The notes beneath the pieces are model-generated. The model was not told the origin of the DNA and made no database searches. It was given only the letters and a program-made list of their open reading frames with translations. Made by a program: the position numbers and the translations under genes. Shown one piece after another: positions 40,770 to 62,940 of a DNA stretch of 64,000 nucleotides. The stretch is taken from sequence record PZ386980.1; one strand, written 5' to 3'. Within the stretch, counting starts at the first letter, position 1. Every line of letters begins with the position of its first letter. Origin of the DNA: a phage.

Positions 40770-41243
40770 TTATTTGAACGATTTAACGTACTGAATAGAA
40801 CCCTTACTATTCACAAAGGCAATTTTACCATTTTTATTATACATGGTAGCAGTACGCTGATAACCATAGGTTTGTTTACCAGATTGATAACCAACTAATG
40901 CAAAATTATCTTCACCCATTTTATTCTGTTTAGCGCGAATGCGTTCATGACCATGTGCCATAAGAACCTTAGCATCACCAGTTGCAATGGATCGACGAGT
41001 TTTTTCATCTTCAACTGCATTAACAAAGTCGTCAAATGAATCAAATTTAGCATGAGATTTATTATACAATTTTCCATCTACTGCATAATTATATCCCTGT
41101 ACATCCATCTCAACTTCTGTACCATCATCCAATACAGCAGTAATTTTTTGACCTTTTTTAAATTTCAAAAGATCAGTAAAAGATTCAGCAATAATTTGAG
41201 AATTAATAGCTGCTTCAGTGATAAATTCTTGATATGTTTTCAT
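40770..41243 (-). CDS. internal-protein-like head protein with capsid-targeting N-terminus
   Basis: N-terminus MKTYQEFITEA matches the T4 internal-protein targeting sequence and prohead-protease site (ITE/A). Confidence 0.65.
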   Translation of the reverse strand: MKTYQEFITEAAINSQIIAESFTDLLKFKKGQKITAVLDDGTEVEMDVQGYNYAVDGKLYNKSHAKFDSFDDFVNAVEDEKTRRSIATGDAKVLMAHGHERIRAKQNKMGEDNFALVGYQSGKQTYGYQRTATMYNKNGKIAFVNSKGSIQYVKSFK

Positions 41244-45761: not shown

Positions 45762-46037
45762 TTATTTCATATTATTGAAATATTCTTCTGCGATTTCGTC
45801 GTTATCATGGTAAACTTTAGAAGACAGTTTAACATAACCTTCAGCAGTGAACATGTTAATCACAACCTTTACAGTATACCACTGACCATCTTCATTACCC
45901 ATTACTGCGTAAGTTTCAAACATCGGATGATCAGGACCGATAACTTTAATATCATTCACTGTACGACCAAAATCTTCTGAAACACATTTCATAAAGAAGT
46001 TGAACAGTTCACCGTAATTATCCATTTCATTCTCCAA
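45762..46037 (-). CDS. hypothetical protein
   Basis: 91-aa ORF directly downstream of early promoter. Confidence 0.5.
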   Translation of the reverse strand: MENEMDNYGELFNFFMKCVSEDFGRTVNDIKVIGPDHPMFETYAVMGNEDGQWYTVKVVINMFTAEGYVKLSSKVYHDNDEIAEEYFNNMK

Positions 46038-46068: not shown

Positions 46069-46098
46069 ATAGTACCATAGAAGAACAGGGATGTAAAC
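46069..46098 (-). promoter_or_regulatory. early promoter (GTTTAC -35, TACTAT -10)
   Basis: Member of dispersed promoter repeat. Confidence 0.6.
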
Positions 46099-46229
46099 AG
46101 TTTTGTGAAAAAATTTTTAAAAAGTTTTGGGGAATTCTAGGGCAGGGAGGGGAAATCAAAGGATAGGATAATATATTATAAAGGGTAGAAACTAAATGAT
46201 GTCTAGAGAGGCCTGGAAAGGCCTAGATA

Positions 46230-46262
46230 CCAAAAAGCCCCAACCTTTCGGCTAGGGCTAAG
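46230..46262 (-). terminator. hairpin terminator, copy A of 33-bp repeat
   Basis: CCAAAAAGCCCCAACCTTTCGG..GGGCTAAG; on minus strand forms GNRA-type hairpin followed by UUUUU. Confidence 0.5.
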
Positions 46263-46266
46263 AATG

Positions 46267-46740
46267 TTATTTGATTTGTTTAGCAGACCAAATGCGGTCT
46301 TTAATAATTTTTTGAATGTCTTCAACATACTCAAGAGAGTGAGCATGTGGGTTATCTTTGAAACTATAAGCACGAGCTAGTTTTTGGCCTTCAGTTTTGA
46401 TTACTAAAAGCTCTTTAAGGATAGCTTCATATTTGGAGATAATTCCTTTAACAATATTTTTCTCTTGTGCGACTTTAGGATCTGCTTTAGGAGCAGGTTT
46501 ACCCGAAGCCTTTGCAAAAGCAGCGCCAGTAGCAACTAAACTTTTCCAGGCCATACTAACTGCATTTCCCGTAAATCCTTCCGCTTTCATGTCGCGTGCG
46601 AACTGGAATCGCGATTCATCAGAAGCATCTTTGTAAGAATATTTACCCGCTGCAATGGCTGCTTTTGCGACAGCTTGAATTTCGGTGCTAGATGCTTCAT
46701 TTAACACCGCTTCATTTAAAAATTGAGTATATGATTTCAT
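46267..46740 (-). CDS. internal-protein-like protein with capsid-targeting N-terminus
   Basis: N-terminus MKSYTQFLNEA resembles IP targeting sequence; late promoter upstream. Confidence 0.55.
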   Translation of the reverse strand: MKSYTQFLNEAVLNEASSTEIQAVAKAAIAAGKYSYKDASDESRFQFARDMKAEGFTGNAVSMAWKSLVATGAAFAKASGKPAPKADPKVAQEKNIVKGIISKYEAILKELLVIKTEGQKLARAYSFKDNPHAHSLEYVEDIQKIIKDRIWSAKQIK

Positions 46741-46780
46741 CTTATTTCCTGTTTTAATTCGTGGATTTAATATACTACTA

Positions 46781-46788
46781 TATTTATA
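46781..46788 (-). promoter_or_regulatory. late promoter TATAAATA (minus strand)
   Basis: TATTTATA on plus strand about 40 nt upstream of ATG at 46740. Confidence 0.5.
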
Positions 46789-46821
46789 CCAAAAAGCCCC
46801 AACCTTTCGGTCGGGGCTAAG
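46789..46821 (-). terminator. hairpin terminator, copy B of 33-bp repeat
   Basis: 30 of 33 nt identical to copy A; AGCCCCGACC-GAAA-GGTTGGGGCT plus UUUUU on minus strand. Confidence 0.55.
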
Positions 46822-46829
46822 CCTTGCGG

Positions 46830-47128
46830 CAACCTTGTCGGGGTTCCACCTGCTAAGGCAAGTGTTTGTACGAAACGCCGGGATTCGAACCCGGTTATCA
46901 AGCAGTTGACGCTACTCAATATTTTTAAAAGGCCATATCTCGACCATATCCGAACGTTCCGTCAAAAACGCTACTCGGCTTACGGCAAAGATATTTCCTC
47001 GAATCGATAATTCGGTGCGCCGTTTCTGCTGTGATATAAGGGGCATTAACAAAACATAAAGATTTATTAATGCCAGTCCTTAAACAGGGAACATCAGTCC
47101 GACGACTTACCGGTAGCGACCCGGTTTC
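46830..47128 (-). ncRNA. candidate stable small RNA region adjacent to tRNA cluster
   Basis: About 300 bp without ORF on the coding strand, contains tRNA-like T-arm (GGTTCGAATCC) and long hairpins; position matches where I recall T4 small stable RNAs. Confidence 0.3.
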
Positions 47129-47574
<446 letters not shown>

Positions 47575-47657: not shown

Positions 47658-47744
47658 TGGTGGGGAGTGATGGAGTCGAACCACCCGAGTCGCAATGACA
47701 ATGAATTTACAGTCCACACCGCTACCTCTACGGGATAACTCCCC
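47658..47744 (-). tRNA. tRNA-Tyr (anticodon GUA), long variable arm, CCA encoded
   Basis: 87 nt; perfect acceptor GGGGAGT/ACTCCCC; anticodon loop CUGUAAA closed by a stem with two G-U pairs. Confidence 0.6.
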
Positions 47745-49860: not shown

Positions 49861-49888
49861 TTTATTCTCCTCAGTAGTTGATAGGGTA

Positions 49889-49918
49889 ATAGTATCACAA
49901 CTAAAACCCTATGTAAAC
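49889..49918 (-). promoter_or_regulatory. early promoter (GTTTAC -35, TACTAT -10)
   Basis: Variant of dispersed promoter repeat. Confidence 0.55.
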
Positions 49919-49930
49919 AACTTTGTGAAA

Positions 49931-50188
49931 TTATTTTAAATCTTCTAATCGTTTCTTCATCTTAGAACCATTTTTAGCGATTTCTCCTGCGTCAGAGCAT
50001 AATGCTAAAAGTGCTTTAACTTTAGTTTGGTCTCCTTTAAAAGACGAAGGATCGACTGCAGCAGCAAGTTCTTTAATACGAGAGAAAAGACGCTCAGCTT
50101 CAGCTAAAGCCATTCCAAGCTTTACTTCCATACCATGAGAAGATTCAGTGATAATAGTTTCTGTAGCAAACTCTTTATAAGTTTTCAT
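49931..50188 (-). CDS. internal protein I-like small head protein
   Basis: 85 aa, N-terminus MKTYKEFATETI fits capsid-targeting sequence; position next to 57B as for T4 ipI. Confidence 0.6.
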   Translation of the reverse strand: MKTYKEFATETIITESSHGMEVKLGMALAEAERLFSRIKELAAAVDPSSFKGDQTKVKALLALCSDAGEIAKNGSKMKKRLEDLK

Positions 50189-50218
50189 TTTATTTTTCCT
50201 AATTAATTTTGATGAGGT

Positions 50219-50248
50219 AATAGTATCACTACCTCATCATCGTGTAAA
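50219..50248 (-). promoter_or_regulatory. early promoter (GTTTAC -35, TACTAT -10)
   Basis: Shares about 40 nt with the promoter at 49889-49918. Confidence 0.55.
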
Positions 50249-50261
50249 CAACTTTGTGAAA

Positions 50262-50958
<697 letters not shown>

Positions 50959-62901: not shown

Positions 62902-62906
62902 ATTAA

Positions 62907-62924
62907 GGGAGCCCATGGGCTCCC
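62907..62924 (+). terminator. hairpin GGGAGCC-catg-GGCTCCC followed by TTTTT
   Basis: Perfect 7-bp stem with T-run, immediately after gene 8 stop. Confidence 0.6.
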
Positions 62925-62932
62925 TTTTTCTT

Positions 62933-62940
62933 TATAAATA
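62933..62940 (+). promoter_or_regulatory. late promoter TATAAATA for gene 9
   Basis: Exact TATAAATA 25 nt upstream of gene 9 ATG. Confidence 0.6.

Follow-up and report, generated by a model that had tools for sequence, protein, structure and literature searches.

A terminator-bracketed, putatively late gene at the end of the stable-RNA unit of T4-like phages as a candidate member of an unannotated internal-protein family

The DNA analysed here is a 64,000-nucleotide stretch of a phage genome (sequence record PZ386980.1; hereafter the window), and the element under study is ORF157, an open reading frame (ORF) of 157 codons at 46267..46740 on the minus strand. We propose that ORF157 probably belongs to an unannotated family of internal proteins (IPs), PHROG 2280, and that it is carried by a late-gene cassette at the terminator of the stable-RNA gene rnaC, which is gained and lost by terminator-to-terminator recombination. 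The 559-bp unit, composed of a late promoter, a ribosome-binding site, ORF157 and one terminator copy, would constitute an accessory-gene cassette. Phages RB51, RB68 and Ac3 are 100% identical to the window over 1.5 kb around ORF157, and judged by this sequence match the source phage is RB51/RB68, Tequatrovirus relatives of T4. Window positions are obtained by subtracting 23751 from RB51 positions. The gene corresponds to RB51ORF140 and RB32ORF132c. It is labelled 'hypothetical protein' and never Ip in every one of the 512 phage records that contain a homologue, and the gene name was not found in the literature searched. The RB51 GenBank record already notes that the gene is 'flanked by 34 bp imperfect direct repeat'.

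The internal proteins of T4 have in common just a short N-terminal capsid targeting sequence (CTS) (PMC3012670). Mutagenesis of IPIII showed that targeting depends mainly on residues 4 and 7 and processing on residues 8 and 10, and the prohead protease gp21 cuts after the glutamate of the motif L/I-X-E (PMC9026906). The first ten codons of ORF157 (46711..46740, minus strand) encode MKSYTQFLNE, a predicted CTS in which Y4 and F7 occupy the targeting positions and L8-N9-E10 matches the gp21 motif, followed by A11. The likeness of ORF157 to T4 IPI-III and to Ip4 and Ip5 of RB51 is limited to the first 10-14 residues. When the candidate starts in the window, 512 in all, were scored with a crude profile derived from five named internal proteins, ORF157 was, by a narrow margin, the top match outside the training set. 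The pattern M-x-x-[Y/F]-x-x-F-[L/V]-x-E is retained in homologues down to about 35-40% identity, and Y4/F7 is retained in all full-length homologues, allowing a one-residue shift in Klebsiella phage proteins. The leaders of closer alleles read MKTYNEFLTE and MKSYAEFLTE, and those of distant members read MLKFNEFLAE, MINFSDFLNE, MKSFSSFLNE and MLEYSEFLKE, with the remainder of the protein strongly diverged. The conservation of the leader outweighs the profile score as evidence for a CTS. The 98.7%-identical orthologue g140 of phage fD1 was detected using liquid chromatography coupled to tandem mass spectrometry in purified virion preparations. The first-pass annotation of the window had noted a 157-residue ORF opening with MKSYTQFLNEA and had likened this N-terminus to that of internal proteins. 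The ORF was found as described, and the likeness is supported by residues 4, 7, 8 and 10, by conservation among the homologues and by the virion mass spectrometry of fD1 g140. By its sequence, ORF157 fits the definition of an internal protein.

The putative cleavage motif of ORF157 is duplicated. Codons 8-16 contain a tandem duplication with a period of 15 nt and exact 11-mers (46694..46719, minus strand), which repeats the motif (FLNEA and VLNEA), and the second copy, L13-N14-E15, is again followed by alanine, A16. The sequence reads AVLNEASSTEIQAVAK from A11 and ASSTEIQAVAK from A16. Alignment showed that L013-type and Mosigvirus-type alleles lack the duplication, and therefore alleles may differ in having a propeptide of 10 or of 15 residues. 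The L013-type allele, in which the motif reads FLMTE/A (slash, cleavage site), is a poorer fit to the gp21 motif.

ORF157 is bracketed by a direct repeat of 36 nt, located at 46227-46262 and 46786-46821, with 33 of the 36 positions identical (92%) and a start-to-start spacing of 559 nt. The first-pass annotation had described a 33-bp element identical at 30 of 33 positions; this element (46230-46262 and 46789-46821) is present and extends for three more nucleotides. The 22-nt core of the repeat occurs exactly twice in the window and gave no match in 100 shuffles. On the minus strand, which is the gene strand, both copies fold into a 10-bp stem with 6-7 GC pairs that is capped by a GAAA loop and has UUUUU directly behind it. 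The folding energy is -24.9 kcal/mol (z -3.9) for the upstream copy and about -28 kcal/mol (z -3.2) for the downstream copy. The plus strand of both hairpins is devoid of a U-tract. Both copies thus have the GC-rich stem-loop and directly adjoining U-tract of an intrinsic terminator on the minus strand only, and the earlier view that they fold as terminator hairpins holds for the gene strand.

The upstream, rnaC-proximal copy (46786..46821, minus strand) contains the stem-loop AGCCCCGACC GAAA GGTTGGGGCT at 46818..46795 and a U-tract at 46794..46790, followed by GGTAT. T4, PST, LF82-4 and VR7 have this same hairpin as a single copy after rnaC. The downstream, e.8-proximal copy (46227..46262, minus strand) is the predicted terminator of ORF157 and contains the stem-loop AGCCCTAGCC GAAA GGTTGGGGCT at 46259..46236, a U-tract and GGTAT. 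The copies differ at three sites, all of which are transitions in the 5' arm (C->U, G->A and A->G; CGA to TAG), and G-U wobble preserves the pairing at all three on the gene strand. Across 20 hairpin copies from 14 phages, 91% of the stem cells are paired. The two positions carry discordant variants of the hairpin: the upstream and downstream forms are CGACC and CTAGCC in RB51, and CAGCC and CGACC in locus L036. This discordance is compatible with exchange between copies. In phage KAW1E185, the ORF157 orthologue is followed by a hairpin that exactly reverse-complements the usual form, reading CAACC TTTC GGTTG instead of CGACC/CAACC GAAA GGTTG, as expected from an inversion within the hairpin or a template switch.

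A T4-type late promoter box, TATAAATA, is located at 46788..46781 on the minus strand, 40 nt upstream of the ATG, and its first three nucleotides are the last three of the upstream repeat copy. A Shine-Dalgarno sequence, AGGAAA (46750..46745, minus strand), precedes the ATG by 4 nt and is conserved in orthologous loci. The box is kept in all examined Tequatrovirus orthologous loci, in one Mosigvirus-type locus (L038) and in one Klebsiella Jiaodavirus. In other Mosigvirus-type loci it reads AATAAATA, and the spacer around it varies. The copy of TATAAATA in front of ORF157 carries weight for its intergenic and correct placement and for its conservation in orthologous loci amid varying surroundings. 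The late promoter named in the first-pass annotation is retained on these grounds of position and conservation, and not on enrichment of the motif. The terminator would insulate the predicted box against upstream transcription.

The site between rnaC and e.8 is polymorphic among T4-like phages. In T4, rnaC and e.8 keep this order, and what lies between them is one hairpin without a gene. The left flank of the T4 hairpin is that of the upstream copy in the window, and its right flank (GGTATCTAAGCCTTTCC...) is that of the downstream copy. The site is likewise empty in PST and the Mosigvirus LF82-4, where one hairpin stands between identical flanks, and the megablast match of T2 and T6 is contiguous across the empty junction. 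Filled loci read ...GGGGCTTTTTGGTAT/AAATA...ORF...CATT/CTTAGCCC...GGGGCTTTTTGGTAT/CTAGGCC, and empty loci read ...GGGGCTTTTTGGTAT/CTAGGCC, where slashes mark the junctions. A small second hairpin, GGCCUUUCCAGGCC (46210..46226, minus strand), belongs to the right flank; it is common to the empty T4 site and lies outside the inserted unit.

Kelasse, PhAPEC2 and two IMG/VR loci (L014 and L020) contain a second gene, B, behind the ORF157-type gene, A, in the order T-A-T-B-T'-e.8, in which T denotes the hairpin, with the junction GGGGCTTTTTAGTTTGAATC. Gene B follows the downstream hairpin, encodes a protein of 187 residues that starts with MKTYAEFLTEA and is homologous to RB69ORF149c, has its own terminator and is present in 165 records. 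RB69 has the configuration T-B, in which the B flank (TTTTTAGTTTGAATC) directly follows the rnaC hairpin with the same junction as in the T-A-T-B loci. Four configurations were thus observed, namely empty, A, A+B and B only, and their junctions lie exactly at the hairpin. The pairs T4/RB51 and RB69/Kelasse show that the gain or loss of gene A at the hairpin holds in two right-hand contexts, the e.8 flank and the B flank. The indel boundaries lie within the motif, and one motif is left when the site is empty, both in the comparison of T4, PST and LF82-4 with RB51 and in that of RB69 with Kelasse and PhAPEC2. The content of the interval between the repeats therefore differs among T4-like genomes, and identical content in all relatives, which the first-pass annotation had named as counter-evidence to its reading, was not found. 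In RB69 itself gene B is frameshifted: RB69ORF149c and ORF148c (locus L049, 5429-5991) resemble a broken copy of the 187-residue gene that is intact in Kelasse and PhAPEC2, which is either a pseudogene or an error in the reference sequence.

Other ORFs with CTS-like openings occupy the site in further lineages. A 126-residue ORF (MYTVNEFLAE...), preceded by the hairpin and TATAAATA, was found in 142 records. In an IMG/VR locus (L007, UViG_2706795408), a 127-residue ORF (MLTYAEFLNRNTITE..., CTS-like) with its own TATAAATA replaces most of rnaC. Of rnaC, just the last ~45 nt are left there, together with the hairpin, and a second late promoter and a 184-residue membrane-like ORF follow. A Klebsiella Jiaodavirus carries a homologue immediately after its tRNA cluster, where the preceding hairpin is a different one and is fused to TATAAATA. 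Among 60 rows of junction matches, sampled as a spread, 8 were clearly empty and most were filled; these occupancy figures are approximate, and the scan of IMG/VR with a word from rnaC returned 4 loci only. A distant family member, P0015 (MLKFNEFLAE...), was observed on contig SRR7532938_221698 (locus L050, 580-1440) between two terminator hairpins. Their stems differ from those of RB51, but TTTCGGG(G)TATCTA follows each of them. Because it is present after both hairpins of this contig, the GGTATCTA flank may belong to a conserved joint.

ORF157 is a real protein under constraint, as judged from sequence comparison. The pairwise ratios of non-synonymous to synonymous substitution rates (dN/dS) against the window allele are 0.03-0.11, which indicates purifying selection, and dN reaches 0.29 at residues 16-75 versus about 0.03 at residues 91-157. 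The A-type protein is present at an identity of at least 80% in about 387 records. Deep homology searches of 5.8 billion and 1.84 billion proteins recovered 13 clusters and 13 representatives, respectively; T4-like phages were the only source, no entry had an annotation, and the family is therefore narrow. No match to ORF157 was found in Pfam and NCBIfam, PHROGs returned just family 2280 ('unknown function'), and a sequence search of the PDB with the family profile found nothing. The AlphaFold (AF2) model, with a predicted local distance difference test (pLDDT) score of 75, shows an N-terminus of low confidence (residues 1-15), a small domain of helices, a linker rich in Pro and Lys and a long C-terminal helical hairpin. 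In this model, the low confidence of the N-terminus is as expected for a propeptide. The predicted mature product is all-helical, with a mass of about 15.5-16 kDa and an isoelectric point of about 9.5. PHROGs groups the 157-, 187- and 126-residue proteins, the A, B and C alleles, into family 2280; comparison of these alleles by hhalign gave no confident alignment beyond the first 10 residues (probability about 18%).

From the anatomy of the locus we infer the following sequence of events. The cassette would sit at the intrinsic terminator that closes the tRNA-rnaD-rnaC transcription unit of T4-type phages. The upstream hairpin would stop the transcripts of the tRNAs and stable RNAs, and TATAAATA, which abuts the U-tract, would start the late, gp55-dependent transcription of ORF157. 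The downstream hairpin would stop the ORF157 mRNA ahead of the early promoter of e.8. The first 10 residues, or possibly 15 with the duplicated LNE-A motif, would carry the pro-protein into the prohead core. Cleavage by gp21 after Glu10 or Glu15 would then yield a basic helical protein of ~16 kDa, which would be packed with the DNA and injected. Because it would be packed with DNA and injected, ORF157 would represent an unnamed internal-protein family (PHROG 2280). To our knowledge, internal proteins are the only T-even proteins delivered along with the DNA. The terminator copies would provide 36 nt of homology, and recombination between them would precisely excise the cassette and leave an empty site as in T4. 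Recombination in the opposite direction, in which the partner is an excised circle or a donor phage, would insert the cassette, and the same recombination may build and prune tandem arrays of paralogues. Ip1, Ip2 and Ip3 inhibit a different GmrSD type IV restriction enzyme each (PMC12373910), and by analogy the ORF157 product, once injected, would probably disarm a host defence directed at the entering DNA. By this analogy, a role against defences that meet incoming DNA would be the most likely function of ORF157.

Several observations weigh against the proposed explanation, and some of them would fit the alternative that ORF157 is a late accessory protein that does not enter the virion, which we consider unlikely. 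Its likeness to a CTS would then result from common descent or from small T-even genes having exchanged their 5' ends, and its detection in virions would be carry-over. The fD1 virion preparations contained 113-137 of the 277 phage proteins (41-49%), including DenV, lysozyme and NudE, together with 672 host proteins. Because the assay flagged so many other proteins, the detection of g140 proves expression and supports a location in the head weakly. Absence from purified virions, which the first-pass annotation had listed as a counter-argument, is not what was observed, with the reservation that the assay is unspecific. Of the first 10 positions of ORF157, 5 deviate from the T4 CTS, and its profile score of 6.8 exceeds that of the next candidate, 5.4, by a modest margin. 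Moreover, the gene lies outside the two named polymorphic IP loci (57B-tRNA.4 and denV-e), and the annotators who named Ip4 and Ip5 did not name it an Ip; residence in one of these loci is a historical description of internal proteins and not a functional requirement. However, a protein that stays outside the virion does not account well for the retention of positions 4, 7, 8 and 10, also in homologues at about 35-40% identity, or for the conserved late promoter. The second tandem gene and the alternative ORFs at the site likewise open with CTS-like sequences, and the N-terminal 15 residues of ORF157 are predicted to be disordered.

The recombination part of the explanation competes with the possibility, doubtful but more serious, that the hairpins are plain terminators of two adjacent transcription units. 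The second terminator would have been duplicated or imported with the cassette and kept similar by the need to terminate, and the polymorphism would have arisen from homologous exchange in the rnaC and e.8 flanks, possibly with SegB-type homing in the tRNA region. The hairpin core is also a common, generic, strong terminator in unrelated viral contigs, and for this reason the similarity of the hairpins alone is no proof of a role in mobility; two similar terminators could arise without any such role. There is a segB-like gene about 1.2 kb from the cassette, and exchange through flanking homology would yield the same end products. A second composite of terminator and late promoter is located at 62905-62940 on the plus strand, where the hairpin GGGAGCCCATGGGCTCCC, TTTTTCTT and TATAAATA are followed by a ribosome-binding site and ATG, beside a gene for which no such polymorphism is known. 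Because the composite recurs there as punctuation, the ORF157 cassette is not alone in joining a terminator to TATAAATA. The window contains 13 copies of TATAAATA versus 10.8 expected, which is no enrichment. The 126-residue allele lacks the same hairpin downstream, and the downstream terminator of some Mosigvirus loci is a different hairpin. No two-sided compensatory change, just one-sided wobble, was found across the 20 hairpin copies from 14 phages, and the evidence for the hairpin structure is therefore its energy, position and strand asymmetry, and not covariation. The evidence for exchange consists mostly of presence/absence and tandem stacking, and not of replacement between identical repeats. 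The suggestion of an exchangeable cargo slot is supported by the four configurations and the other CTS-like ORFs at the site, with the caveats that the variation is mostly of the kind just described and that PHROGs files the alternative proteins in one family. On the other hand, the repeat reaches past both ends of the hairpin (CTTAG... and ...GGTAT), an extension needless for termination, and the gain/loss junctions fall exactly at the hairpin in both right-hand contexts. The discordance of hairpin variants between positions is as expected under exchange, and the formation of mini-circles between analogous motifs was shown experimentally in RB49 and phi1.

A direct repeat around a single gene, with relatives that have a one-copy empty site, would also be produced by target-site duplication during insertion of a transposon-like or homing element carrying ORF157. 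This origin was rejected as highly improbable: the 559-bp unit contains no transposase, integrase or homing endonuclease, its sole ORF encodes the 157-residue helical protein with no enzyme-family match, and there are no terminal inverted repeats. Furthermore, 36 nt is far above the length of usual target duplications, and the repeated sequence is the resident terminator. Regarding function, the family, structure and homology searches yielded no sequence or fold match that points to one, and no GmrSD phenotype was seen with ip4-10 in the only systematic test, so that not every internal protein can be presumed to act against restriction. With these points taken into account, an internal protein in a cassette that moves by terminator-to-terminator recombination is the explanation that we regard as probable.

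Every gene in the ORF157 region is located on the minus strand. The annotated transcription order is 57B, Ip5, tRNA.4-tRNA.2, the tRNA cluster with a truncated segB-like gene, RB51ORF141, rnaD, rnaC, ORF157, e.8 ... e, denV and Ip4. According to the annotation of RB68 and T4, rnaC (species 1 stable RNA; 46869..47007, minus strand) is the last gene of the tRNA/stable-RNA unit. The conserved downstream neighbour of ORF157, e.8, is annotated at 45762..46025 on the minus strand, and its early-type promoter lies at 46097..46069 on the same strand. In the RB51 annotation, the first classical IP locus (57B-tRNA.4) is occupied by Ip5 (49931-50188, minus strand) and the second (denV-e) by Ip4 (40770-41243). 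ORF157 occupies the gap between e.8 and rnaC, outside both published loci. The first-pass annotation had assigned it to a locus known to be hypervariable, but the site is a third one, about 3 kb away. A 116-residue ORF, RB51ORF141 (47129-47479, minus strand; similar to RB69ORF150c), is located between rnaD and tRNA-Arg. These two genes are directly adjacent in T4, which makes RB51ORF141 a separate insertion within the tRNA/stable-RNA transcription unit. ARAGORN identified 9 tRNAs and Rfam identified 8 at the gathering threshold, tRNA-Tyr (47658-47744, minus strand) being missed by Rfam. Both rnaC and rnaD are invisible to the Rfam search, because Rfam has no family for either stable RNA.

The three characterised internal proteins each disarm a different GmrSD enzyme, and PHROG 2280, with its predicted packaging leader and its presence in more than 500 sequenced T4-like phages, offers a ready candidate for further injected anti-defence factors. 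We tentatively suggest that PHROG 2280 may mark a third, hitherto unrecognised internal-protein locus of Tevenvirinae. It would lie where the tRNA/stable-RNA cluster ends and form an array of one to two, possibly more, late, CTS-tagged, injected proteins, with terminator-to-terminator recombination adding and removing members. Its members might be the missing inhibitors of defences against incoming T-even DNA, for example of GmrSD variants without an inhibitor among ip1-10 (Silas et al. 2025). The series of empty, A, A+B and B-only sites provides a simple natural system for the study of terminator hairpins as recombination joints in T4-type genomes. The ORF157 cassette adds one more instance to the current picture, which itself is unchanged.

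The general principle of the cassette has been published before, in 1994 and 2010. As reported in later papers, Repoila et al. 1994 described conserved regulatory blocks that flank leader-bearing ORFs in the two polymorphic IP loci (PMC2839356, PMC4122927, PMC12373910). Terminator/early-promoter composites called PeSLs bound indels and form mini-circles (Arbiol 2010, Comeau 2014; PMC2839356, PMC4122927), and such stem-loop/promoter blocks mediate the shuffling of cassettes (PMC2839356, PMC4122927). Like the genes of T4 IPI-III and Ip4-Ip10, that of ORF157 is small, non-essential and variably present, encodes the leader M-K-[T/S]-Y-x-[E/Q]-F-[I/L]-x-E with no similarity between families past it, and is located in the same hyperplastic e-tRNA-57B region. 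Unlike them, it occupies the rnaC-e.8 site and not the ipI or ipII/ipIII loci; it was also outside the ip1-10 panel of Silas et al. 2025. The 'five IP differences' between PST and T4 exclude the ORF157 gene, because the PST site is empty.

In the Ip5 locus, direct repeats of 69 nt that are 83% identical (49878-49946 and 50209-50277) contain the last codons of the preceding gene (..DLK and stop), an early-type promoter (GTTTACA-17-TACTAT) and an AT-rich stem-loop. In both loci, direct repeats of regulatory sequence bracket a single CTS-bearing ORF, an arrangement thought to permit the shuffling of IP genes. However, the Ip5 blocks combine an early-type promoter with a weak AT-rich stem-loop, whereas a GC-rich intrinsic terminator abuts a late promoter at ORF157. 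The upstream copy of the ORF157 repeat is the terminator of the T4 rnaC unit, with the same position, flank and sequence, but in the window it is duplicated and its 3' side is fused to the late promoter instead of the GGTATCTAGG flank. As in the PeSLs of RB49 and phi1, a terminator-promoter composite flanks small accessory ORFs in a hyperplastic region, indel boundaries between close relatives lie in the motif, a single motif is left at the empty site, and a route of excision and insertion via a mini-circle can be proposed. The ORF157 element differs from the PeSLs, which pair a stem-loop with a sigma70-like early promoter, in that its promoter half is the late TATAAATA, present on the upstream copy only, and in that its motif is not dispersed but limited to 2 copies in 64 kb. 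The ORF157 cassette thereby extends the PeSL idea to a composite of terminator and late promoter. The element differs from these published cases in its location at a third site, its motif of GC-rich terminator and late promoter, its position at the end of a stable-RNA operon, and a protein family that had not been labelled as an internal protein.

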